The position numbers and the translations under genes are program-made. Shown in pieces: positions 33,230 through 53,164 of a stretch of 64,000 nt of DNA (position 1 is its first letter; every line of letters starts with the position of its first letter). The notes beneath the pieces were generated by a model. It was not told the origin of the DNA and made no database searches. It worked only from the letters and a program-made list of their open reading frames with translations. The DNA is from Lytechinus pictus (Eukaryota), in NCBI RefSeq assembly GCF_037042905.1, contig NC_087245.1:3474001-3538000 (forward strand). Reading direction: 5' to 3'.

Positions 33230-36200
33230 CTGTAATAATAAATTTTAAAAAACATCAATTTACTTAAGACTTACATATATATTCCATTGGATTTATTACA
33301 AGCAATGATAATAATTTGATACATAATACATGTAATACATGATATACCAAAACAGTTATTACAGTTATTTTTCAACAAAGTAAACTCAGCTAAAAGAGGG
33401 GCAATAGGGTTTTGGGGTAAAAAAAAAGCATAATATTGTATGATTAGAACACATGCTTTACTTGAAGTAAATGGAAACAAACATCCCAAGAGTGACTAAT
33501 GATTGCAAACAGAACATAGTCAATAAAACAATGAAAACCTTGCTAGAATACAAAGTTGCAGAACCCCAGAAATAAAGTGTCATGCAGATAGATGTATTAA
33601 ATATGACAATATTAAAATATTTTCACTTACTCTATCTGGTGGCACTTCAATAGGAAGTGGGTTGGCCTGTCTTCTTGCGGGCGGTGCTCTCTTCATGCTC
33701 TGCTGTAACTCAGGTGAGTAGTAGGTGATTCCCCCTACCATCTGAGCCCCTGGGAGGGGTGGTCCCCCTTGAAGGTTAGGGGCATCATCTCCTCCCATCA
33801 GGGGTGGTGGACCTGGGCGTGATGAAGATGGCTGGCGTGGTGGTGGCTGGGATGGTGGAGGTGGTCCTTGGGGAAGAGGGGGACGTCGTTGGTTGTGTTG
33901 ACGGTTTGGAGGAGGACCACCCTATCATCGAAGAGGGGGGAAAAAAGACTTTCAATACACCTTTGTCAAATTATTTATCAAAACATTTGAACAAAACGTA
34001 GTAACATATAATAAGTCTCCCTGTTTCCATTCCCTCGCCTTACACTTGCAAAATCCACTGCCAATGTCTTCAACAAACTTCCTTCCAGTCTTCCACACCT
34101 CTGATTACCAGATAGCTTTTCACTTGATTGGAAAGCTTAATGTACTATTTGGTAATTAACAAAAAGATACTCACTTGGCATATGACCTGCATTTGAGAAA
34201 ACATCTCTGTATTAACACATGAAGGATGGGTATATGGAATTCATTTTAATTTACCCTGATGGTATGTGAATACATTATGAATTTGCATCTGTCCATCTTC
34301 TTTTCTATGTTACAGTTTAATAGATAAACTTGCTCTTCAAAGAACACTGTTCTGAATTTACAAAGCATACATATTTATTAGTTTGAATAATGCAACTCAA
34401 AAGAGAGAAAATCATACATTGCAAACACTTTTATATCAATATACCAATATCCTTTCTAGATTTTTTTCCCCTTTCCTACAGATGTATATTTTTTCTCAGC
34501 TTAGTAGTGGCACCCCTTACAAAATTAGGAAAAAAAAATTTATCCCAAACATCAACTCTAGGAAGCAAAGATCCTACCTGTGGAGGTACGGTTGAGTAAT
34601 GCTGAACTGGGACCTGTTGAGGAGGCGGGACCGGTTGCTGGGGAGGCGGGACCTGCTGGGGAGGAGGAGGAGGCACCTGCTGTGATCCCATGACAGGGTA
34701 ATGGTGTCCAACAAACATGACAGGTCCGCCTACAAACTGAGGAGGAGGTAGCTGGTTGGGATGGGGAGGTTGGGCCATCTGGGGTGGAGGGTGGTTAGGA
34801 CTGAAGAAGGCTGCACTGGGGAGGTGACCGCCTGGTGCTGGAGGCCTCATACCTGGTTGACAGACAAAATACGAGTATTATCATTGCCATTCACCACAAT
34901 ATATGTGTATAATTTGTATTCAATTATACAAAGGTTGACTAGTACATGATTTCTAAACATTTCTGATTGCATTACTGCCAAATTGAAATACATTTATAAA
35001 CTGTAAACCCTTTATCAGAAATAAATTCACTTCAAGCAAATAGCTAATCAAATACAATTCTTACCAATGCATATGCATTCAAATTAAACACAAAAGGCAT
35101 TTGACCTTGACTGTGTGACCAAAGACTTGTGCAAGACAAGCAGTGATACTTGATTACCCTTATGTCCACATTTCATGAACTAGATCCATAAACTTTCTAA
35201 GTTATGATGGTAATTTAACAAATACCCCCAACACGGCAAAAGTTCATTGATCTTGGTCATGTGACCTGAAACTCATGCATGATGTTCGCTGATGCTTAAT
35301 TACTCTTATGTCCAAGTTTCATGAACTAGATCCATATACTTTCAGTTGTGAAATTTAAAAAACTTATTCTTGGTTAAAATTTTGTTTGGATTTCCCCCAA
35401 CATAATCAATTTCATTATGATGATGATGATGGGTTCTTGTATAGCGCCGATATCCGCCTCAGCTGGGCGCTCATTGCGCTTGCTCAAAAATAGGAAATAT
35501 CTCACAAATTTCAATGTCTTCAAACAGTGCTTAGGATCACCATTCAGTTCAAGTACTGTCCTAGTAATGCTACAATTGAGTTATTCTTGCAATAATGTTG
35601 GAGTGGGGAACAGAAAAGTCTTCAGGTAAGACTCAAAAGTTTATTAGGGTCTCTGCTCTCCTGATGAATTGGGGAAGGCTATTCCACAGCTTTGGTCCAG
35701 AGATGTAGAAGGCTCTGTCACCCCAAGTTGTGTGGCTGAGAGATTCTGTCAGCAATGCTTGATCTGCTGATCTGAGACTGCGTGTTGGTCTATGCTGAGA
35801 TAAGAGCTCTGATATGTAGGGTGGAGATTTATCGTTAAGCGCTTTAAATACGAGGACCCCAAGTTTATAGGCTATTCTCTGGTTGACAGGCAGCCAATGT
35901 AGGTCACGCAGAATTGGAGTAATGTGGACTCTCTTTCTTTGAAGGGACAAAAGACGTGCGGCCATGTTCTGAAGACGCTGAAGTCTGTGCAGTTGATGTT
36001 GAGTCAAACCAGTCAAAATCGAGTTGTAAATGTCCAGTTGAGTTGTAACAAAGGCATGAACAAGGAGTTCAGCAACTTTCTTAGTTACATGCTTGCAGAT
36101 CCTTCCAAGATTACGGATAGAGATACATTGACCCTAAATGAACTTTGACCTTGGTCATGTGACCTGAAACTCTCAATGGATGTTCAGGGAAACTTGATTA

Positions 36201-39200
36201 CTCTTATGTCGAAGTTTCATGAACCAGATCCATAAACTTTTAAAGTTATGATGGAAATCAACAAATACCCCCAACATGGCCAAAGTTCATTGATCTTCAA
36301 TGATCTTTGACCTTAGTCATGTGACCTCAATCTCTGGCAGAATGTTCAGTAATACTTGGTAACCATTATGCCCAAGTTTCATGAACAAGGCCCATATATT
36401 TTCTATGTTGTGATGACATTTCAAAAAATTATCCTCCGTTAAGATTTAATGTTGACGACGACGCCGCCGCCGTCGGAAAGCAGTGCCTATAGCCTCACTC
36501 TGCTTTGCAGGCGAGACAAAAATACAATAAAGAAAATGAATGGAGAAAAAAAAAAGAATAAAACAAGACAGTACAAATATAGATAAATAAGAAATAGAGA
36601 AAGAGAGTAAATAAAATAGCAAGATGCAAAGAGAAAGTGTCTTTCTTACCAGCATGCATGTCAGGTGGTGGCATCATGACATCATGAGGGGGAGGGTGAG
36701 GGGGTGGAACCATCCTTGACTCTGGACTACCTGCTAATACATGGGGGTCTGCTCCACTCACTGGGGTGGGGTGGTGGACATGAGGTGATGTCATCGGTGG
36801 GGGCTGTGGGGGAGGGGTATGGGCGAGGTAGTCCCCTCTGCTCTGGTAGCCTGCTCAAGATTAGAAGGAAAGACAATAATGCAAAATATATTCGACAGGT
36901 ACAACAATTCTAGAGTCTGATTAGCTTCACAAATACCACTTAACAAGAAAGATAGCACAAAATTGTGGCATAACTTAAACATAAAATGGGTAAATGGAGT
37001 TTTGACAGCCACAGTACTTATTCTTACAGGATGAAAAACTGTAAGATATTTCTTTTGAAAAATAAAGAGCTAAGAACCTGTACTGCAAACAACTAATCAT
37101 TATTCAAAATAGTTCAAGTGGAACACCTGTAGCAGTCTCACCTGCATAACACAATTCAATAAAGCAGTAGAGCTGACTTTGAAAACAACTCTTGTATAAT
37201 TATTCACAAAATACACAATTCATATGATAATAAAATACTATGTTCACCTAAATGACTTTTGACCTCAATCCTGCAAATCTACAACTCGTGCAAGACAATC
37301 ACTGATACTTGATTAACCTGATGTCCATGTTTCATGAACTAGATCTATAAACTTTCAAAGTTAGGATGGCAATTCAACAAATACCCTAAAAATAGCCAAA
37401 GTTCATTGACCTTAAATGACCTTTGACCATGGTCATATGACCTGAAACTCACACAGAAAATTAACTGTTACTTGATTACTCTTATGTCCAAGTTTCATAA
37501 ACAAATACCCCCAACCTGATCAAATTTCACAAAATTTGAATGACCTTTCACCTTATTTATGTGACCTCAAACTCACACAGGATGTTCAGTGATACTTGAT
37601 TACCCGTATGTCCAAGTTGTAATAACATTTCCAAACTTTGACCTTGGTAAAGATTTTAATGTTGATTCCCCCAACATGGTCCAAATTAATTGACCCTAAA
37701 CGACCTTTGACCTTGGTCATGTGACCTGAAACTCGGGCAGGATATTCAGTAATACTTCATTAACCTTATGTCAAAGTTTCATGAACTAGGTCCATATATA
37801 GATAAGTTACGACATTTCAAAAACTTAACCTTGTTTAGATTTCAATGTTGACAATGCCACCATTGCCGCCGTCGGAAAAGCGGCGCCTCTAGCCTCGCTC
37901 TGCTACGCAGGCAAGACAAAAATTCATCTCTTTGATATATTTTGATACTTTGATTTTTCTGTTCATTCACCACTTAATTTTCATTGATTCTAACCTTTTC
38001 TGTAAACAAAACTGCAGCAAATTGATGCAGCATCTCTGACAAAGTTGGCAAATTAACTTTAAATGGCAGCAAACAGCATTTTATCAATATTTTCCTACCT
38101 CTATCTCTTCCTCCTCTAGATGGCTGTTCAGCTGGACCAACTGGTCCATCTTGACTTCTCTGTCGCTGAGATGAATACCTTTTGGGGCGCCCTCTCTGTC
38201 AAGATCATGAAAGTAGACAAATTAAAAAAAGATTAATGCTGATTTATAAGAAAGGGCATACATGCAATTTCTAACTTAAATTTGGTCATAGAATTTATAT
38301 ATTTTCATGCCCAAATGGAAAAAAAAAACAATCATATTTTATTAATTATTTATTCAAGACCTTCCTAAATAGAATTACACACTTTTTTTTCCTGAAGGAA
38401 CATAAAGTCCTAATTTTAGTTTTACATTTTACATGACGTGACATATGATTTTGAGATAATAATTATGTTCCTTTATTCTTGTTTAATGTATATGCATCAC
38501 CTTGAGTGACAATTTATAATTAAAAAAAATAAGAGCAGGTATTCATTAATTATTATATAACAAGTTCAAGGATGTAGCCAATAGTGAGTACTTATGCAAG
38601 TCATATGTTCATTCTTTAATTCAGACCTGCCGACCTCTGGGAATGAAAAACTGTATTCTGTGATTAAAAAAACTGTATTTTCCCCCAAAAAAGTGTATTT
38701 CATAATAAAATGCGTGGTGCACTCGCTCATCACGGCGCTCAAGCTGCATGCAAGCTAAAATGCGCACTGCTCTTGCAGATGAAAAAAAAAACATTAAAAC
38801 ATGTGTATATCTCACCCTGGTTTTAACAAAATGATTGGAAAAAAAAACAAGTTACCTGAAATTACATTGATCTAATAACCATATTTGTGTAAGTTGTATG
38901 AAATAGAGACATATAGAGATGATTTTTCTCAATAAATTACGATTTTGTAAAAAAAAGAAGAAAAAAAAGAAATTTTTTGCAAAAACGTACTAAATACGGC
39001 TAAAACGTACTGGTTGGCAGGTCTGCTAATTCCACCCAACCTCCCAGCCATCCATTTTTTGTGCATTTTTAGTGCATCGTTTTACCCATAGCGCATAAAA
39101 ATTGAGAAGCCATCTGAAATATCTGTTCTTTCAAAGGAAAATCCATTGGAACCGGCACTTACCTTGACACGCATACTAAATACGTATGTGATGTCATAAT

Positions 39201-42200
39201 AGAAAGCAGGAACGGGTGTGACCTCTTCATCTTTTCGATCCCTCGACAATTTGGAGGGATTTGAACCTTTACACTACAAATTTATACTGCTGACCCGTTT
39301 TATAAAACAAACAATGCACATTTTTAAATTTGTGATGTTATTGAAGATGCAGGCATCTCGCATATTTGTAATATCAAGCAAAAGTATTCAGCACAAGTGC
39401 CTCATGCTTGTTGCATATTGCAAAACCCTTGAATAGGCTGCATTGCCACAACACACTCATAAATGTGCATATTTGTACATTACTTTTATCACAGTATTTC
39501 ATCTGATACAAACACACACTAAAATAGAATGAAAATTATAACACAGTTTTTTGTATGCACATATCAAGTAATAATTTGTTCTATACACTTATTCAACCAT
39601 ACACACAGTTGCAATAATCAATTTGGTTTAGTTTAATAAATATGTATTACGATCTTACCTCTCTCCTGTCATATCTCTCCTGTCGTGATTCTTCTTGTCC
39701 ATCAACCGCAACTAAGAATAACGACAATAAAATAAAGAGCAATTGAAAATTTGACCAATCAAGCAAATACAATCAATGAAATTACTACTGGCCTAATAAA
39801 ATCTGTAAGATCAGTTGGAATTTCATGTAATGATCTACTGAGTTTTTAATATTTTATGTCTAGCTATCTCACACTTCTTAAGAACTAAGTTTTAGTAAAT
39901 CCAACAAAAGTACATGTCACCATCCTCATTCATTACTAATTTATAACAAGTGGAATGCCTCTGGCAGTCTCACCTGCATTACGCAATCTGATATAGCAGC
40001 AGTGCAGCCTTTGAAAACAGCTAATGAATAATTATTCACAGAAGAAAACACTAATATGATAATAAAATATTATGTCCATTGACCCAAAATCTTGGCCATG
40101 TGCCTGAAACGCGCACAGGGTATTCAGGGATACATTGCTGCTCTTATGTCAAAGTTTATGAACTAGATCCATAAAATGTTGAAGTTACATGTATGATGAC
40201 AATTCCACAAATACCCCCAACATTACCAAAGTTTGTTGACTCTAAATGACCTTTGACCTTAGTCATGTGACCTGAAACTCGCACAGGATGTTCAAGGATA
40301 CTTGATTGCTCTTATGTCCACAATTCATGAACTAAATCCATAACATTTCAAAGTTATGATGACAATTCCTCAAATAACCCCAACATGGCCAAAGTTTGTT
40401 GACCGTAAGTGACCTTTGACCTTAATCCTGTGACCTGAAACTCAGGCAGGATCTTTTCCACTATTTCCCTTATGTCAAAGTTTTATGAACTAGGTCCATA
40501 TACTTTCTAAGTTATGATGACATTTCAAAAACTTAACCTTATTAATTTAAGATTTCAATGTTGATGCCGTCGCTGTCAGAAAAGCGACGCCTATAGCATC
40601 GCTCTGCTATGCAGGCAAGACAAAAATAGCAATGTGTTAACAGAGATCATGAAATAAGAAGTTGATTTACTTATGATCGGGTGACTGATCCAAATAAAAA
40701 AGCAACATTTATTTTTTTCTTAATATATAACCACTTATCAAGCATGGAAAGAACAAATATAAAATCACATTATAATCATATTATAATGCAGTTTTCTTAT
40801 ATCAAATTACTAAGTTTACTTTTAAAGAAAAATCAAAACAAAGGGTGCTACACATTTTGAAAATCAAATTTCAAATTTTCAAAAGAATTGAAGGCTGAAT
40901 AAATTGAAATCCATAATCCTTTTGTAAGATTGGAATGTAAGATGATAATGGAGTATAATTTGTATTATTGACCGTTTACCAAAACTTTAAACAGATTATG
41001 ATGGTATACAACATTCATCTTGATTCCAAAGACATTCTCTCAAAATTATTCATTAACTGTAACTTACTCAATATAGTATTGAAATGATTCAACACTGACA
41101 AATTACAGCCAAGAGTGAAAAATATGAATAGTATGGCTGGGGAGTTCGGTGGATTCACAATACGGTGCGCTATCTATCGGTTGTAGCGGAAAGGACGAAA
41201 TTCGCAATGCCTCATGGGAAAAAGTCGGGATCTGTTGAGCTCACTAAAACTAAAGTGCATGTATGCATGCGATTATTCAGCGCTGGCCGATACAGCTCGA
41301 CCGGATATGCTATTTAATGGGGTCCGGGAGGTGGAACAGAAATTAGCCCGCATATTTCTTTGGGAAATTTAGACCATTAATAATAGTGCATTCATGCCAT
41401 ATGGTTTTCATTTTTGAAGCATCACAGTCTACTAGTACTGTGTGCTGCCTGCACCTGTGCGCAATGTTGACCCCGAAGTTAGATATTTGGCCTGTTCGCT
41501 GCAACCAATAGATGGTGCACCATATTGTGAATCCACCAAATTAGACATCCATGCAGACCAACTAAAAGACTACATTACCTTCTACTCCCACAGGTTCAAT
41601 AATAGGCATTGTTTCTAGTTTGGACTGCACATCTTGATCACCATGACTCCAGGCAGTGTTATCTTGAATGGAAACCTTAAGTTCTTTCACTAGATTTCTC
41701 AGCCCTTCCATCTCCTGTTCTTCAATCTGCTCTATAGGGGCTTCCTTGCTCTCCTGCCTTGTACTTCTTTGACGACGATCCCTTGAATAAGCTTTGCTTT
41801 CTCGCTGCCTGCGTGGTTGGCTCTCTTCCCTTTCTACTTCTCTCACAGGTTCTCCACTTCGGCTTTCTTCAACATCCTCTGAGGATGGGGCCCGTCCACC
41901 TGCTCTATGTGATGTTTCATGCCGGCGGTTATCTCTATAGTCAGTACCTTGCCTCCTTTTATCTGAATATGTTTCCTGTGTATCATATCTGGCATCCTGA
42001 CTTTCATATCTTCTGTCCCTATGATCATTTCGAGTATTCCGTTGTTCATACCTAGTCTCATATCTCTCATCCTGTTGATTATAATTATGTCTATAGCGTC
42101 CACCAGAACTTGCTGGTTCTGATCTATAATTGCTATTAACCCATTGTTGCTTGTGTCCTTTGTTGATATCTTGTTCTCTCCTGTCATAAAAATTATCTCT

Positions 42201-45200
42201 CCGAACATCATCCTGCTGATGGTCTCTCCTCTCAGACCCATAGTCCGGTTCACGCTTACTTTGTCGACCAGTGCGTTCATAATCATCACGATTAAATTCT
42301 GTTGTTGAAGTATCGTTTCTGTGGCGTTCGTTTCTACGATTCTGTCTCTCAAGGTAAGCATCATGTGCCCGCTCTTCGGCACTTCTGCTGTCTCCCCGAC
42401 CACTGATTCTACCAGTTCTTCTGGATCCTTCCGGACCCTTGAATCCCCATTGTCTCTCGTAATCGTTGCTATCCCCTTCACCCCTATCTACACTCCGCTG
42501 CTCTTGTTGTTCATTACGCTCCTCTTGGTACCCTCGACGATTTCCACGGTAACCGCGTCCTCTACCTATCCTCCTATCACTCCGTCCCCTATCATCAGCA
42601 TATCTTTCCTTTGAGTAGCTTTCATCATATCCTTGTTCCTCTTCCCTGTAAGATTCTCTAGAGTTTTGCCTGGCTTCTTCCTGCTCTGCTTCCATAGCCC
42701 AGGAACTGTTTTGTGTCTGAGAACGAATAGTCTTCTTTGGCACTGTTTTATTTTCTTCCTGTGGTAGACTTGGCCACTCCTCTTCTTTTTGCAGGTTATC
42801 TCTAGATGGAGGCTCCGGTTCTCTGTTGTAGACAGGCCTAAACATAAGGAAATAAAGTTCATTAAAACTACATAAAAAATGCAGTGGTGATATGTTCATG
42901 TAGCTTTACACAAGTCTATTAACACAACATTAAAATGGTTACTGAAAGGATTTATGGGATTACCAGTAGCACCCTTCCTACCAAAAATAAGTGCAACATC
43001 TCATCCAAAACAAACCATTATACCTGCTTCAGTTACCGATTTGCACCACATGATTCTATTAATTTTTCCATCTTTTCAACTCAATTTTCTCCTTCAGGCC
43101 TATCTTGACCCTAATAAGGCTGGGGGAGGGGCCTCCCAGGCCCCCTCCCCCTCCTCACGATGTCTCACTAAGTCCAAATCTCCACATTGTTCGAGACAAG
43201 TTTATTTTACCAAATTTTTTCTTTGTATCCATGATTCGACTGAGAGAAAGAATGCTTTGTTTGAAACATTGGGTGCATTGTAGTTCACATATTAAAAATT
43301 ATAATGCTGCTTTCTATGACCTTGCTGTCTGTGACCATGTTCGTGTTTTGGGGCTAAAAATCCAGGAGAAAATATCTGACATTGCATAAATTTTACCATT
43401 ATACTGGAAAAGTTGTCTTTTAAAGATTACTGGAATCTTCAATCTTGTCTGTAACACAAGTACAAAAGATTTCTACCTTCTAGGCCTTGACTCGGTCCAC
43501 CCCTCACTATCCTCATCTTCCTCATCTCTCCTCCTAAATCCCCTTCCTCTCCCTCTACCCCGTCCTCTTCCTCTGCCGCGCCCCCTACCACGCCCCCTGG
43601 TAGGTATTGGTACATCTTCTAGCTTCTTCCTCCTTATGTCCATCCCATAAATGTCACGTAGCTCTTGACTGGACTTGGGGGCTTGATCTTCTTCAACAAA
43701 TCGATCGTGTCTCCAGCGATCCTCATTCTGCCATAGCTTTTTCTTCTCCTTTGGCCTGAGGATTCAAAAGAAAGAAACAAAAAAAGACTAACCCTCCTTA
43801 TCAACAATTCATTACATAACAGAATCTGAAGTACTCTTATCTGTTGACTAAAAAACAAGTTAAAGTGAGCTGCACATAAATGAATAGAAATTAGAATTAA
43901 ATAATTTAATTTTGAATAGTCTTTATCAATATGCTCCCTTACTTGGTTTCTTGTTCCTTCTCTTCATCATCACTCATTGTCCTGCTATCATGCATATAAT
44001 AGGGTCCTTTCCTTGGTACAAACTGAGGATTCTTTCTATCTTCATCATCATCCAGATCCTGAGGTGCTTCCTAGAAAATGAAATTAGTTTTCAAGGTAAA
44101 TCATGATGATCTATAGTTCAACAAAGATAGTAAGTGAATATCTCATAGATATACCACTTCACCAAGTTAACATTTTCAACACTGTCATTTTCAAACAATG
44201 TTATTTAAATTTGCATGCAACAGCATTACTAGTATGTGCATTACATTATGATAATGCATGGTTGTTCACAGGCAAGACAGTGTAAGAGAAAGATATTAAA
44301 AGTAAATTGATACCCATGTTAACCACTCCTACCAGTCCTAGCCAAGTATACCACAGGGTCCTACCAATCATTATGAATTAAATACAGTAGCTCAGTGATG
44401 ATCAAGTTGCATGTACATTTATGCCCCAAATACAAAATAAAATTGCTGAAAGCTAACCCCATCCCCTCAGACAGGATAAAGACATTTATAAATCAATATA
44501 TTCAACATATATGTACATCAATTATCATTGAACAGGGCTCTCTCAAAAAGCAGATTTTATGTACTGAAGAGACCACCCTGTCTGAAGAAAAAAATAATAA
44601 TTAATCACTCATAAATTTATGTGCTTTTCAAGTGTTCCTACCCTACTTTTCTTTAAGCTATGTATTCATTATCTGCATACCTCTCCATCTCCACTCTGTC
44701 TTTCTTCATCCGGAGCATCTTCCGCATCTTCATCCTCATCGCGAATCTCTCCCTCTTCAAGATCTTCTTCTTCTATCTCTCCTTCTTCCAGCTCTTCTTC
44801 CTTTTCTATCTCTCCTTCCTCCAATTTGTCTTCATTCTCATTTAATTCTCTACTGTCTTCCCCAGCTGATATCCTTTCGTTGCCAACATCACTCTCTTGT
44901 ATCTCTGCCTCCTCTTCAGGTAAACGTTGATCCACCTCTACGTTTTCATCCTGGATGACGTCTTTGTTGCTTGGATAAGCCTCTTCTACTTTTTCTTCTA
45001 ATTGTTCTACACCTTCATCTTTCTCTGGTTCTAATCTATTTTCTGAAATAGTGTTTTCCAACTGCTCTCCTTTATCTGGTTCTTGTTGTACTGTGAATAA
45101 AATGGTATACATACACATTCAGACACTTAACACAGTGATTCATAAATATACACAAATAAAGGCATACATGAAATTTCAAAATTTGACAACTATCAACTGT

Positions 45201-48200
45201 ATTTTAAGACTTAGGTTGGGAAATTTAATAATAAAATTTACTTTGACAAAAAAAAAATCTAACTTCATAAAACACATGCATGTGAACTCAGCACCTCCTC
45301 TATTCTTGTACCTACAGGTATATCTCCTACTGAATAAACAAAGCTATAACTGACCATTTATGGAGGCATCATGACTAGTATCTTCCTGGGTTCCTTCAAC
45401 TGCAGGAGTAGTAATAGATTCTCCAACAACTTCCGTTTGTAAGACTTCATTAGCCCCAGGTGCTTCTGGTTCTTCCGGCACTTGCTTTCCTAGGGTGGTT
45501 TCATGAAGAGCATCAGGTGTCGTCTTCGCAGGTTGTGGTTCAGGCACATCTTGAGCCTCCACAGTATCTGAAGGAGTATTGGTAGGAGCAGATGCAAGAT
45601 TATCCTCCAAATTAGAAGAAATGGGAGGAGATTCTGTTTCATCTTTAGTGGAAGGATTCAGTGTGTCCCCTTTTCCTCCAGGCTGGTCTTCTGTCCTTGC
45701 TATATCATCAGGAGATATTGGCTCTGCCGCTACCTCCTAGTCAAGACGAAATAAAATAGAATAGGAACATATGAATTATCCTTAATTAAATGACAAATAA
45801 TTTGTCTTACAAAAATAAAGTGTTACATGAAAGTATTAGCAAATGAATTCCAATCGTACTAATTACTCAGAAGTCGAATACAGGTGTATATTTCTTCATT
45901 CCAAATTATATCAATAGCAGGAATCATATCAAGTATACATACATGTACCTAATTACAAGTACAAGTACATGTAGTTGTTTGTCAAAGAATAGTAAAAACT
46001 ACATGTAGGTGCTCATGTTTATTTCGAAAATGTTTAAACACTATTAATAAACAGGCATTTACATTTAACCGGCGGGGGTAGCAAAAACAAAAGAACAAAA
46101 AAAAAACATAAAAAACGCTTGGCTTCACCTTTGGTGTCCTTTTTCTTGACTTGAAAAAAAAAAAATTATCACTTAAACAAGTGGAGCGCCTCTGGCAGTC
46201 TCACGTGCATTACGCTATTCAATATAGCAGCAGTGTTGACTTTGAAAACTTACTATAAAATAATTATTCACAAAAAACACCATTCATATACATTGTAATG
46301 ATACAATACTACCTCAACTGACTCTTAATGACATTTGACCTTGATCATGTGATCTAAGACTTGTCAGTGATAGTTGATTACCCCTATGTCCACAATTCAT
46401 AAACTATATCCACAATTTTTGAAAGTTATGACAACAATTTAATTACCTCCAACATGGCCAAAGTTCATTGACCTTTAATGACCTTTGACCTTGTTCATGT
46501 GACCTGAAACTTGCACAGGATGTTAAGTCATACTTGATAACTCTTATGTCCAAGTTTTATGGACTAGACCTATACAATTTCAAAGTTATGAGGGTAATTC
46601 AACAAATACCCTTAACTTGGCCGAAGTTCATTGACCCTAAATGACCTTTGACCTTAATCATATAACTTGAAACTCAGGCAGGATCTTCAGTAATATTTGA
46701 TTAACCTTATGACCAACTTTCATGAACTAGGTCCTTATACTTTTTAAGTTATGCTGTCATTTCAAAAACTTAATCTTTGGTTAAGATTTGAAGTTGACGC
46801 TGCCGCTGTCAGAAAAGTGGCGCCTATAGTCAAGATGGAAACACAATATGAGGCAAGTCAATAAACTTTTGCTTTTCAAGACAATGACTCCAAAGGCATA
46901 AATATGTTCGATATCAATGATTCAATGACTTATTCACTACATCATTCCTTCTTACACCCCCAACTTTTGGTCAAGGGCTCAAGCCTGAATAACAGCTGTA
47001 ACATCTTGACCGGACTGAAGTTTATTTAGACTATTTGTTTCTTATGCTTGCTTAATTCTTTAATCATGCTATTTTGAAGAAAGTTTTATTAGTTACATGT
47101 ATACTTCCAGAAAACATATCAAATGAGCTGATTAATTCAACTTGTACTATTTGTGTGTTACATGTACGTAGTTATCTACAACTTTGAACCAAAGTTTGAA
47201 TTACTCTCCATGTCAGAATAAGGGCCATTATCTGCTATTAATTTGGACTTGTTTCTTCTGCCTTGAGATATGTCTACCTACCTTATCATTATCGTCTAAT
47301 TGTTGATTAGTACTTAATGGAGCTTCCACTTCATCTGCACTGGCATAATCAGATTCCTCATCTTCATCCAAGATTGTATCACTCTCCTGTAGACAGTGTG
47401 ACAAATGAAAACAAAACCCAGAGAAGAATAAAAATTAAGGCATCAAGATTCCATTATTACCAACCTTAATAATCATCATAAGGATGTACATTCGCCTAAG
47501 CCCCCATCCCACTTACACGTATTCTGAATCAAGTAGTATCGGCTGGAATGAAATGACCTATGTAGGACCACCAGCTGGTCAAGTTTTTATTCCCCGATAT
47601 ACATGTACAACTCTCTCATTGCGTTCAATATGTTTTGAATGCTCTGCTCGTCTGCTGGTATGTTTTAAGAATGCAGAGAGAATGGACTACAAACCCTGTT
47701 TGACATTCTTTCTTCTAGTTTGTTACAGAATTAATATATAAAGAATCTTATGGAATAAACAAAGACAATATTTAGGCCTACTTGGCAAATCAAATAATGC
47801 GAGCGCACAGCGAAAAAAGCTGCAAATGGTATTCACACCATAAAACGGACATTTTACAGAGCACTTAGAAAAACATTGGATATGAGAAAAAATGTATACA
47901 GTATTTCACTCTTTTGAACGTGTATTGTAAGCCATGCCTGTTTTGTTTCTCAGTTAGGTCTGAGTGTGCATTTAAGTCCTATTGTAGGCCCCTAATGCAA
48001 GGCTCGACATTAGCGGTGGCCCGGTGGCCCAGGGCCACCAAAAATTCACCTCGGGCAACCATTATTGATAAAATGTTAAGTTTTGGTGGCCCGAATCGGG
48101 CAACCAATAATTTTCAAAGTAGCGCAATTTTCCTCCCAATTTTGCACACATTTATCAACTTTCTACAGCTCAAATTGCAAGCCAGTTTGTCATGCGCCCT

Positions 48201-51200: not shown

Positions 51201-53164
51201 ACATCACATTTTCTTTGTGAATTTGAAGAGAAATGACCTTCAGACTGACAGAAATGTAAAATTTTTGAAAAAAATCCAATTATTGGCTGCAAAAAAGAAG
51301 AATGAAATCGGGTAAATTTTCAGCATTTCTCTGCCATAGACTGTGTAGTTAAGAAATGGACACACACAAATCCAAATTTTTAGCTTCCGAGAGCTGTTAT
51401 AAATTTATTATTAATGCCAAAAACTTGTCCATAAAGAGTCCAATAGGATTTTTTATGCTCTATCTGATGGTATGATTTTTATAAAGATTTGGAAACCAGA
51501 TCACAATGAAAAATTGCGACAAAGTGAAAAATATTGTGCAAAACAGAAATTTCATTTTCCCATAGAAAACGCATGGAGAAATGGCAATTTCAACACACAC
51601 AAAAATAAGGATTTGCAATTTATCTCTAAATCCTTATTTAAAATGATCATATAAACTTGTCCTTACTGTCAGAAGAAGCCCCTGAATTTTCTATTTCCAT
51701 ACTAGACCAAAAGCTTCAGTCTCTGTATTTTGGTTGTTCCGCTGAACTACGTTGGCTCCACTCACCATACATAGACTGAAGGGGATGGGGCCCCGTACCT
51801 ACAGCCAACGTATAGTGAACTAGCGTTTTATAGATCGTGATTTAAAACTGTTTTTTAAGCAAAATTGAAAGTTTCATGGTTTCCATTATCATGGAAATAT
51901 AAATAAATTAAGTAATTGCATACCTTGGGCCGGAGTTATTGAAAAAAATCCTCTGGATGATTGAGAAATCTGTCATCTAAGACATTTTCACCTGACCTGA
52001 CGGTTTTTCTTGCAAGTTGCCATCTTGAATGACGTCATTATCGTATTAACTTAATGTCTCGAATCGATATATCGCGATTATAACTAGTACTCGTACTAGT
52101 ATAACTAGTATCGTTTATCTTCGGTTTCGTTCGCATATGGAGCAGATCGTATAATATCGAAAGCAATATCGATATCACATTCGTGATTGTTGACGTTCGT
52201 TTGTAAATATTTTATAGTTTGGCTGCCATTTTGACCATTTTTATCGTGTTCAACCCAATTAAACATCGGTAAAGTATATTTTTCATGCCTTTTTCATCTA
52301 TATCGTTTGAAGTATTTAAATGTTGGAATATCATCAATTAAAAGTTTGTTGTTTATACATCCTTAGATTGTAAATTCGATGTGTAAAATTACATCAAACT
52401 TTGGACTGTGAATTGACAAAAGGGAGGGAATGAGAACACATGCGAGCCCACACGTACACCCTACCGTCGGTAAATGGGGATTACAGTAAAATGTCAGAAA
52501 TTGTTGAATAAATCCCCAGAAACGACGGTTATTCCTGTCTATTTCCATACATGCCAAACACAAGTTAATAATCAGTTCAGATCACATTTTTCTAGTAGCC
52601 TGAACTTCCCCGAAAAAATGTGCCATATTTCCCCTAAATTAGCCTGTTTTATGCTGACACTTTTCAGTGTGGCTTCAGACACCCTAATAGTACTAGCCCC
52701 CCCCCCCCCCCCCCCCCCCCCTGGATCCGCCTATGAAGTAGCTCACTGCACTATCTCCCGATCATGCCAGTTTACTTTGGTAAAGAAGTTAGACTTATTA
52801 ATATGTCTTATGACGGTGTTGAGAAACGGACCCCTGCAATTTATATTTACCATATATGCAAAAAGGCAAGTCAATGGCATTGGCAATGCAATGGCTGCAT
52901 GCACGCACCCTATCGGTGAGGCAACACTCCACATTCACTTCGTACGGATACACTGTCTGTAGCGATCGAACATACCGGCGCCGGAATCGTAGTCCGGACA
53001 TGTCATGTACCAAAATGTGAAATTGACAACCAATTACTGACAAAAATAAATTCTTCAAGCGTTGCAACCACACTTACATCTCCTGAGCTATTTGCAATGT
53101 CATCCCCTTCCTTGGTTTCACTGTCATCAAGCCGAACTCTCCTCCGACGTCGTCTGTCCGCCAT
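33197..53164 (-). CDS. CASC3: CASC3 / MLN51 / Barentsz, exon junction complex subunit; 13 coding exons, 3600 nt, 1199 aa
   Basis: N-terminus MADRRRRR; SELOR/Btz domain LDDDEDRKNPQFVPRKGPYYMHD...KLWQNEDRWRHDRFVEEDQAPKSSQELRDIYGMDIR; PKRYSSQRQR; Pro-rich C-terminus with GGITYY. All introns are GT-AG and phase-consistent. Confidence 0.96.
33631..33921 (-). CDS. CASC3: CASC3 exon 12 (Pro-rich; GGITYYSPELQQ...IEVPPDR)
   Basis: atag| acceptor, |gtaagt donor, 291 nt, conserved GGxTYY motif. Confidence 0.92.
34578..34852 (-). CDS. CASC3: CASC3 exon 11 (Pro/Gln-rich)
   Basis: ccag| acceptor, |gtagga donor, 275 nt, phase 1 to 0. Confidence 0.9.
35090..36520 (-). mobile_element. Helentron-like (HINE/DINE-type) element, copy A, interrupted by an L2
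   Basis: Internal tgacc(t)ttgaccttggtcatgtgacctgaaact subrepeats, (GCC/GAC)n tract, terminus gcaggcgagacaaaaa; the other terminus is eroded. Confidence 0.75.
35417..36125 (-). mobile_element. 5'-truncated L2 LINE with (CAT)n tail and CATT target duplication
   Basis: ORF2 C-terminus LVHAFVTTQLDIYNS, RLQRLQNMAARL, HITPILRDLHWLPV, GDRAFYISGPKLWNSLP; tail gcgctatacaag then (cat)n; catt at 35413-35416 and 36126-36129. Confidence 0.93.
36650..36850 (-). CDS. CASC3: CASC3 exon 10: (G)YQSRGDYLAHTPPPQPPPM...PDMHA
   Basis: gcag| acceptor, |gtaaga donor, 201 nt, phase 1 to 1. Confidence 0.9.
37115..37920 (-). mobile_element. Helentron-like element, copy B
   Basis: Subterminal inverted repeats gtctcacctgc / gcaggcaagac, internal tandem subrepeats, (GCC)n tract, A-run flank. 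Confidence 0.82.
38099..38195 (-). CDS. CASC3: CASC3 exon 9: RGRPKRYSSQRQRSQDG...GRDR
   Basis: gacag| acceptor, |gtagga donor, conserved KRYSSQRQR. Confidence 0.93.
38622..39025. mobile_element. hAT-like MITE
   Basis: TIRs CAGACCTGCCGACC / GGTTGGCAGGTCTG; flanks only partly match (ctttaatt / ctaattcc). Confidence 0.7.
39659..39711 (-). CDS. CASC3: CASC3 exon 8: (V)AVDGQEESRQERYDRRE
   Basis: ttcttag| acceptor, |gtaaga donor, 53 nt; required to bridge phase 1 to phase 0. Confidence 0.88.
39945..40625 (-). mobile_element. Helentron-like element, copy C (most complete)
   Basis: aacaagtggaatgcctctggcagtctcacctgc ... 163-bp subrepeats ... gcaggcaagacaaaaa; short palindrome tgcc-tct-ggca next to the subterminal repeat. 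Confidence 0.85.
41148..41537. mobile_element. MITE with ~40-bp imperfect TIRs
   Basis: GGTGGATTCACAATACGGTGCGCTATCTATCGGTTGTAGCG / CGCTGCAACCAATAGATGGTGCACCATATTGTGAATCCACC. Confidence 0.8.
41579..42837 (-). CDS. CASC3: CASC3 exon 7 (1259 nt; R/D/E/Q/Y mixed-charge low-complexity region)
   Basis: tttag| acceptor, |gtaatg donor; lies within the 445-aa ORF; phase 2 to 1. Confidence 0.92.
43477..43755 (-). CDS. CASC3: CASC3 exon 6 (SELOR C-half plus (RG)10)
   Basis: ctcag| acceptor, |gtagaa donor, KLWQNEDRWRHDRF...QAPKS. Confidence 0.95.
43943..44070 (-). CDS. CASC3: CASC3 exon 5 (SELOR N-half)
   Basis: ttctag| acceptor, |gtaagg donor, LDDDEDRKNPQFVPRKG. Confidence 0.96.
44681..45090 (-). 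CDS. CASC3: CASC3 exon 4 (acidic; three LEEGEI)
   Basis: ttcacag| acceptor, |gtatgc donor, 410 nt, ends ERQSGDGE. Confidence 0.92.
45355..45736 (-). CDS. CASC3: CASC3 exon 3 (acidic, P/T-rich)
   Basis: actag| acceptor, |gtcagt donor, 382 nt open, phase 0 to 1. Confidence 0.85.
46176..46831 (-). mobile_element. Helentron-like element, copy D (one end truncated)
   Basis: Same terminus and 163-bp subrepeats as copies B and C; stops at gcgcctatagtc. Confidence 0.82.
47282..47386 (-). CDS. CASC3: CASC3 exon 2: ESDTILDEDEESDYASADEVEAPLSTNQQLDDNDK
   Basis: ctacag| acceptor, |gtaggt donor, 105 nt, SDYxSA motif. Confidence 0.9.
47998..49852. mobile_element. Non-autonomous hAT-like element
   Basis: TIRs CAAGGCTCGACATTA / TAATGTGGAGCCTTG; cctaatg directly repeated on both flanks (7 bp exact); clustered subterminal GGCCACC/GGTGGCC motifs. 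Confidence 0.85.
50725..50975. mobile_element. DNA transposon remnant with repeated GTTCCAACTTACCCC motifs
   Basis: Four copies of the motif, one inverted (ggggtaagttggaac). Confidence 0.5.
51920..52275. promoter_or_regulatory. Candidate intronic bidirectional promoter in CASC3 intron 1
   Basis: CpG-rich; AATGACGTCATT palindrome, GCCATCTT and GCCATTTT (YY1-like), TATCGATA; outward-facing splice donors on both strands. Confidence 0.5.
53078..53164 (-). CDS. CASC3: CASC3 exon 1 coding part: MADRRRRRRVRLDDSETKEGDDIANSSGD
   Basis: gaaATGG context, |gtaagt donor, MADRRR N-terminus. Confidence 0.95.

Follow-up and report, generated by a model that had tools for sequence, protein, structure and literature searches.

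Three tandem LEEGEI copies in the acidic arm of a sea urchin CASC3 as candidate ARS2-recruitment motifs

Could CASC3, an exon junction complex (EJC) subunit, make a contact of its own with ARS2 (SRRT)? The question is raised by the CASC3/Barentsz gene on the minus strand of a 64 kb stretch of Lytechinus pictus DNA (the whole of which is referred to here as the window), where the acidic arm ahead of the SELOR domain reads LEEGEI three times in tandem. How and where CASC3 joins the EJC is disputed and its N-terminal activity is unexplained; a contact with ARS2, if true, would tie the late EJC, which promotes nonsense-mediated decay (NMD), to the hub at which newly capped RNAs are sorted. On balance we lean towards the reading that the three copies are genuine ARS2-recruitment motifs (ARMs), generated within the arm by tandem duplication of a unit of 10-11 codons, and CASC3 is probably a new ARM client.

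Three consensus motifs in the CASC3 reading frame

A search of all six frames of the window for [ED]EGE[ILVM] returned the three LEEGEI copies and nothing else. They are separated by EKEEE and then EEED, lie 31, 41 and 52 residues ahead of LDDDED, where SELOR starts, and fit the ARM consensus [ED][ED]GE[ILV] (PMC9402713) exactly. Together with the splicing and Btz matches described below, this confirms what an earlier note on this DNA had read from the sequence concerning the tandem triplet in CASC3, its spacers and its motif class. The note had also taken the purely synonymous differences between the copies as a sign of constraint on the protein. All five positions that differ among the three 18-base units are indeed synonymous (the synonymous share of the possible single changes in the unit is 12/54), but an inference of constraint from them is biased, the copies having been selected for their identity as protein. 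Whereas the LEEGEI cores are the same as protein, the spacers vary in length and sequence, and Tandem Repeats Finder reports the copies as a repeat with a period of 30-33 bp and 81-85% matches, so that the triplet had a single origin followed by duplication.

Splice joints in contigs, together with RNA reads, place the three motifs in the CASC3 reading frame. Joints with canonical ends at 45355/45090, 44680/44069 and 43942/43754 are present in contigs from two related organisms, here called A and B, and the motif exon is joined in frame to SELOR in the contigs of both. The joint upstream of the motif exon is also crossed by 3 raw RNA reads (23 reads placed, from about 6% of the run), and the first mates of the raw reads fall on the plus strand only. 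The gene is single-copy, a genome search having found one Btz locus. Pfam Btz (PF09405) matches both SELOR exons (36.2 and 22.8 bits, cut-off 22), the best PDB matches of these exons are the CASC3 chains of EJC structures (E 1.8e-11), and the architecture is that of CASC3, with an acidic N-terminus, SELOR, and then an export-signal-like stretch, a KRYSSQ motif and a proline-rich end. The arm ahead of SELOR consists of Asp and Glu to 33% and the motif exon carries no Pfam domain; judged by composition rather than by a disorder predictor, the part holding the motifs would be disordered. When single SELOR exons served as queries for homologues, 0 and 1 proteins came back, and an ESM Atlas search with the acidic exon gave no usable match.

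We consider it possible but doubtful that the triplet is a chance look-alike, in which one EEGEI within a fast-evolving tract rich in Glu and Gly was duplicated by slippage and may, like other acidic tails, stick to the basic foot of ARS2 in lysate while having no selected role. Shuffles of the 136-residue motif exon hold at least three ARMs at a frequency of 3e-4 to 8e-5 but at least one in 9-18% of cases, and the 30-33 bp tandem repeat fits such an origin. Cores that are identical as protein while their spacers have diverged fit it poorly. Charge alone is moreover insufficient for binding. The FARB peptide of FLASH, 931-DELEEGEIRSDSE-943, binds ARS2 at 0.5-5 uM, and no measurable Kd was obtained for the scrambled peptide or with ARS2 K719A/K722A/K734A (PMC5923425). 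PMC5923425, PMC7470949, PMC7544205, PMC8860587, PMC10720265, PMC13501132, PMC3338441 and the ELM 2024 paper are cited throughout for those portions of their text and supplementary sheets that were available.

Among the known clients, FLASH is close to copy 3, which is followed by Arg: FARB shares with it the seven residues LEEGEIR as well as an acidic disordered context. FLASH is, however, a nuclear factor for histone mRNA whose binding has been measured, whereas CASC3, with its three copies, is an EJC protein that shuttles and is mainly cytoplasmic. Two or three ARMs a few residues apart, as in CASC3, occur in ZC3H18, ZFC3H1, ZC3H4 and ZC3H6 (ELM class LIG_ARS2_EDGEI_1), and the third ZC3H18 motif, DDDLEEGEV, resembles EEDLEEGEI of CASC3; these ARMs are conserved and belong to nuclear decay or termination factors, whereas the CASC3 triplet is known from two related urchins. 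NCBP3 resembles CASC3, on the present reading, in contacting both ARS2 and the EJC from one chain, but it is nuclear, binds the cap-binding complex (CBC) directly and is a known CBC-ARS2-EJC link; CASC3 reaches the EJC via SELOR, with no CBC contact seen.

The ARS2 of the host retains lysines matching K719, K722 and K734, assigned by their +3/+15 spacing, and the equivalent lysines are present in 113/113 scorable sequences among 120 ARS2 homologues. The zinc-finger exon of the host ARS2 matches a protein carrying the label Lytechinus variegatus at 100% identity. Given the exact consensus, the retained lysines and the binding of FARB, an encounter between the urchin CASC3 peptide and ARS2 should lead to binding; on these sequence grounds we would expect binding in vitro with good confidence, and would call use of the contact in the urchin cell evenly balanced. 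A complex prediction for shark ARS2 698-800 with meerkat CASC3 78-122 and zinc scored 0.23 and 0.22 against a mark of 0.34, with the alignment unused, no controls and peptides outside the calibration, and so speaks for neither side; the metazoan ARS2 foot is not zinc-stabilised (PMC5923425).

By analogy with known structures, a single motif at a time would sit, bent at its glycine, on the basic foot of the C-terminal leg of ARS2, with its acidic residues on the lysines and Gly/Ile on a hydrophobic patch, and would compete there with NCBP3, PHAX, ZC3H18, ZFC3H1, ZC3H4 and FLASH. The extra copies would bring a modest gain in occupancy through rebinding rather than true multivalency. The contact would be transient, would need neither the EJC nor the CBC, and would most likely bring shuttling CASC3 to newly made messenger ribonucleoproteins, where SELOR loads on the EJC; CASC3 would not be the main tether between ARS2 and the EJC. 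Alternatively, the contact might be used in the cytoplasm with N-terminally shortened, NMD-promoting ARS2; mammalian cytoplasmic isoforms that lack the first 270 residues exist and promote NMD (PMC8860587). CASC3 in other animals would have no motif or a single weak one, which in most mammals is EEGEY.

CASC3 and ARS2 in human cells

All cell data that bear on this contact are human. According to PMC5923425 (Supplementary Data 1), CASC3 shows an enrichment of +3.71 in ARS2 pull-downs relative to EGFP. With ARS2 d692-743 it stands at log2 -2.64, the sixth row by p-value, and the rows beside it among the losses are THRAP3, ZC3H4, CPSF2, ZFC3H1, NCBP3, PHAX and ZC3H18; with ARS2 K719A/K722A/K734A it stands at log2 -2.11. 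In the CBC-binding ARS2 mutants CASC3 is unchanged (+0.12 and +0.18, with one wild-type replicate). The loss of eIF4A3 is smaller (-0.82 with d692-743 and -0.88 with the triple lysine mutant). In the reciprocal direction, GFP-CASC3 1-137 enriches SRRT (log2 +1.52, -log10 p 7.58, q 0, 26 peptides, five replicates each), with a test statistic of 8.8 vs 1.5-3.9 in eight neighbouring rows, and eIF4A3 is unenriched (-0.21); the sheet has no row for NCBP1, NCBP2, NCBP3 (C17orf85) or ZC3H18, and NCBP1 and NCBP2 have no entry anywhere in the available file (PMC7470949 Table S2). Lysis for this pull-down is described with RNase A.

The link is thus hinted at in published supplementary tables on which the main texts are silent: that of PMC5923425 does not name CASC3, and that of PMC7470949 mentions neither SRRT nor ARS2 and treats the CASC3 N-terminus as a region with no known motif and a decay-promoting activity. 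ARS2n has also been found in proximity to CASC3 and MAGOH (PMC8860587), so that an association of CASC3 with ARS2 is already in print; the motif and a direct contact are not, as far as the available portion of that paper goes. A literature search combining CASC3, ARS2/SRRT and motif found no ARM proposed in CASC3, with the ELM instance list, Rouviere 2023, figure panels and the bioRxiv supplements outside its coverage. ELM 2024 counts 21 instances of LIG_ARS2_EDGEI_1, and the available part of its text does not name CASC3. Of the direct link put forward in the earlier note, an association that depends on the ARM-binding surface is supported by published human proteomics, and it may be direct or indirect.

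An indirect association is conceivable, although not the explanation we favour. Here NCBP3 (or ACIN1 or THRAP3), bound to ARS2 by a motif of its own, would carry CASC3-containing EJCs, and the urchin triplet would be a lineage-specific shortcut, uninformative for mammals. The same ARS2 mutants also lose NCBP3 (-3.0; PMC5923425), and NCBP3 binds the EJC in vitro solely when the CASC3 SELOR is present (PMC7544205), which provides an indirect route from CASC3 to ARS2; the human motif, EEGEY, is off the published consensus and missing in mouse. Such a route is at odds with eIF4A3 dropping far less than CASC3, and with the enrichment of SRRT by the SELOR-less fragment 1-137 with neither eIF4A3 enrichment nor NCBP3 or ZC3H18 rows in the sheet.

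Several human observations weigh against the contact. Tubulins (-1.9 to -2.2) and SET (-1.8) also drop with the ARS2 foot mutants, as expected if a chance look-alike sticks in lysate, and the lysates of the ARS2 mutants received RNase H only (PMC5923425). Acidic tails may bind ARS2 after lysis. Beta-tubulin tails contain EEGEF. In the 1-137 table SRRT ranks about 68th when rows are ordered by fold change and its level in the GFP control is high, and CASC3 110-480, from which EEGEY is missing, still rescues NMD (PMC7470949). The CASC3 and eIF4A3 immunoprecipitation sheets of PMC13501132 contain no SRRT row, and human CASC3 is mainly cytoplasmic, though shuttling (PMC3338441).

The strong form of the earlier proposal, in which CASC3 is an avid direct bridge from the EJC to the CBC-ARS2 platform, we regard as improbable. 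In its favour, tandem ARMs tended to bind tighter than single ones (bioRxiv 2023.07.25.550453), the proximity of ARS2n extends to both CASC3 and MAGOH, and within the nucleus CASC3 becomes part of late Bact spliceosomes (PMC13501132). However, ZC3H18 binds at 7.7 uM with its double ARM vs 3.5 uM with the triple (bioRxiv 2023.07.25.550453), and ARS2 offers one ARM site that its clients use in a mutually exclusive manner (PMC9402713), so avidity as a strong effect is unsupported. The bridge fares no better: SRRT in eIF4A3 pull-downs is unchanged in the CASC3 knockout (-0.22; PMC7470949), and CBP80/CBP20 were not co-purified with CASC3 in the data available from PMC13501132, both of which also count against the contact itself.

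Orthologues and other genes with the motif

At close range, the motifs of urchin CASC3 may have been kept better than their surroundings. The motif exon of organism B has 17 differing positions, 14 of them itemised. Within 44744-44824 the itemised changes are a synonymous one in a Lys codon and GAA to GAT at 44816; the latter, the sole itemised amino-acid change in the motifs, turns copy 1 into EDGEI, still within the ARM consensus, which argues against a chance look-alike. As the 3 non-itemised differences may lie in 44680-44841, copies 2 and 3 may carry changes in organism B. Non-synonymous changes account for 21/30 of the itemised changed codons in the two acidic exons vs 1/8 in the second SELOR exon. 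On present data the triplet is known only from two related sea urchins, with organism B partly seen. No other sea-urchin CASC3 was recognised among the best 150 homologues (20/150 checked by name), so conservation within echinoids is judged from one related organism.

The wider comparison used a SELOR profile search; out of 640 proteins found, the top 150 were analysed together with one further sequence. In this set of 151, 130 have at least 40 residues ahead of SELOR, and the other 21 were dropped. Strict ARMs number 11 instances in 10/130 N-termini, about 2.5-fold over the 4.1 +/- 2.0 expected from 15-residue shuffles (reached in 0/200), and none occurs after SELOR in 136 C-terminal parts. 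All 11 lie within 70 residues of SELOR and 0 in the 8,185 residues farther away, where only 0.5 were expected; the clustering argues against chance. A wider ARM pattern gave 16 instances in 14 orthologues, all of them 16-67 residues ahead of SELOR, and among 60 permutations of the five motif elements the ARM order came 2nd (z 3.2). Carriers identified by name include a spider, in which EEGEY follows EEGEL, as well as Daphnia (two), a sea spider, a priapulid, a termite, a lacewing, a planthopper and a smelt. In human CASC3, EEGEY stands at 101-105, and EEGEY or DDGEY is present in 7/8 mammals compared.

Other results of the same comparison weigh against the ARM reading. Strict ARMs are absent from 120/130 N-termini, that of the sea star included; the crinoid has one EDGDI, the congener of the smelt has no ARM, and mouse CASC3 lacks EEGEY. 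With 10-residue shuffles of 128 deduplicated N-termini the observed count is reached in 3/300, and unrelated orders of the motif elements attain z 2.5-2.9 vs 3.2 for the ARM. Neighbouring motifs are far better kept, GDG[QE]E in 77/130 and [ED]Y[ED][ST]A in 54/130 N-termini. Conservation above the surroundings, by which the earlier reading can be judged, thus largely fails at a distance and passes incompletely at close range.

EEGEY lies outside every published ARM consensus examined; one of these allows D or E at position 4 (PMC10720265). PHAX is the relevant comparison: its EDGQL is a non-canonical ARM, and it was a client in the 2018 ARS2-mutant proteomics that its off-consensus motif explained years later. 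PHAX is off at position 4 with a conserved motif, whereas mammalian CASC3 is off at position 5 (Y) and has lost the motif in mouse. It seems to us somewhat unlikely, although worth stating, that across animals the effector surface of ARS2 has an overlooked direct client in CASC3, whose motif, 16-70 residues ahead of SELOR, would let it compete with NCBP3, PHAX and the exosome adaptors. The forms would be the triple canonical motif in urchin, EEGEL/EEGEY in spider and EEGEY in human. If so, the ARM consensus would widen to an aromatic position 5, the human CASC3 N-terminus, whose decay-promoting activity is unexplained (PMC7470949), would gain a partner, and the urchin triplet would be the pointer to a human motif that strict-consensus searches miss. 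If the urchin case alone holds, it would be a case in which one lineage gained a short motif and multiplied it.

Genome-wide, a search for ARM pairs (two within 30 bases) gave 22 matches and its reversed control 23, most of the former being simple repeats or out of frame. The raw count being no higher than the control, the analysis draws solely on which genes the in-frame loci represent. Plausible genes with an in-frame pair comprise CASC3, an ACIN1-like gene (RSB motif), a ZC3H4/6-like gene (CCCH fingers), two ZFC3H1-like genes (called from layout and a sub-threshold HAT match) and two others, an acidic protein of no assigned family and an amiloride-sensitive ion channel. Five of these seven look like RNA-processing genes, with motif and domain exons linked by proximity and strand; the equal control and the pair in the channel gene weigh on the other side, as chance pairs do occur.

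The ACIN1-like gene carries its tandem ARM, EDGEI-K-EEGEV, in frame at G000:C2:59445042-59445073 (RSB motif at L031:6242-6457). Human ACIN1 stands at about -1.75 log2 with both ARS2 foot mutants (PMC5923425 Supplementary Data 1). As part of the other alternative EJC, ACIN1 may bind at the same site of ARS2. If both cases are true, the two alternative EJC types may load, or be handed over, via one ARS2 site. The two ZFC3H1-like loci are near-identical and lie on one contig in opposite orientation (G000:C21:3994287 and 11668796), the result of duplication or of an uncollapsed haplotype.

An ARM-like word also occurs inside ARS2 itself, with 14 instances in 13/36 full-length proteins against 1.9 expected, uncorrected for relatedness; that of the host is LEEGEA (exon L003:4283-4549). 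Self-inhibition or self-association is possible. The ARS2 gene (G000:C1, about 8606200-8626600) lies on the contig of CASC3, about 5 Mb off and on the same strand, which is probably incidental.

Further features of the locus

The coordinates of the CASC3 features are collected in Table 1.

Table 1. CASC3 features in the window (positions are those of the window).
Feature	Position	Strand	Sequence or basis
ARM copy 1, LEEGEI	44807..44824	minus	TTGGAGGAAGGAGAGATA
ARM copy 2, LEEGEI	44774..44791	minus	CTGGAAGAAGGAGAGATA
ARM copy 3, LEEGEI then R	44744..44761	minus	CTTGAAGAGGGAGAGATT
Acidic coding exon with the three motifs	44681..45090	minus	Joints, AG/GT ends, Pfam-empty, 136 residues
ERQSGDGE (ERxxGDG[QE]E-type), directly ahead of SELOR	44681..44704	minus	GDG[QE]E in 77/130 orthologue N-termini
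SELOR/Btz exon, first half	43943..44070	minus	PF09405 36.2 bits, joints
SELOR/Btz exon, second half, with RG repeats	43477..43755	minus	Pfam, PDB matches, joints
Upstream low-complexity coding exon, rapid evolution	45355..45736	minus	Joints, comparison with relative
Coding exon with SDYASADE ([ED]Y[ED][ST]A-type motif)	47282..47386	minus	Loose read ends at 45738 fit exon end
Probable first coding exon, MADRRRRRR...	53078..53164	minus	Start shared with named CASC3 proteins; joint to next exon presumed
LRNLVKELKV, export-signal-like stretch	41673..41702	minus	Hydrophobic spacing as in human LEQDVAQLNI around L468

The spacing retained in the export-signal-like stretch suggests that urchin CASC3 would still shuttle. 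The well-kept GDG[QE]E was considered as the true ARM behind the human data and rejected: neither the first acid nor the final hydrophobic residue is present in it, and in human CASC3 it lies at 145-153, beyond the SRRT-enriching fragment 1-137. No partner was found for the ERxxGDG[QE]E motif.

SDYASADE (window 47327-47353, minus strand) is a member of the [ED]Y[ED][ST]A motif present in 54/130 orthologues. We take this motif to resemble the phospho-FFAT (VAP-binding) motif. VAPA and VAPB have no entry in the available sheets of the PMC7470949 supplement, the CASC3 1-137 table included, and none of the 20 papers listed by a literature search on CASC3 and FFAT names CASC3.

Two kinds of repeat-related sequence were seen in the CASC3 introns. 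An open reading frame of 166 residues (window 35633-36133, minus strand) resembles, by eye, the C-terminal part of a reverse-transcriptase element of the LINE (long interspersed nuclear element) type. A repeat family of several hundred bases with recurring GTCAAAGGTCA words occupies at least five places, near 35100-35400, 36100-36500, 37100-37900, 40000-40600 and 46200-46850.

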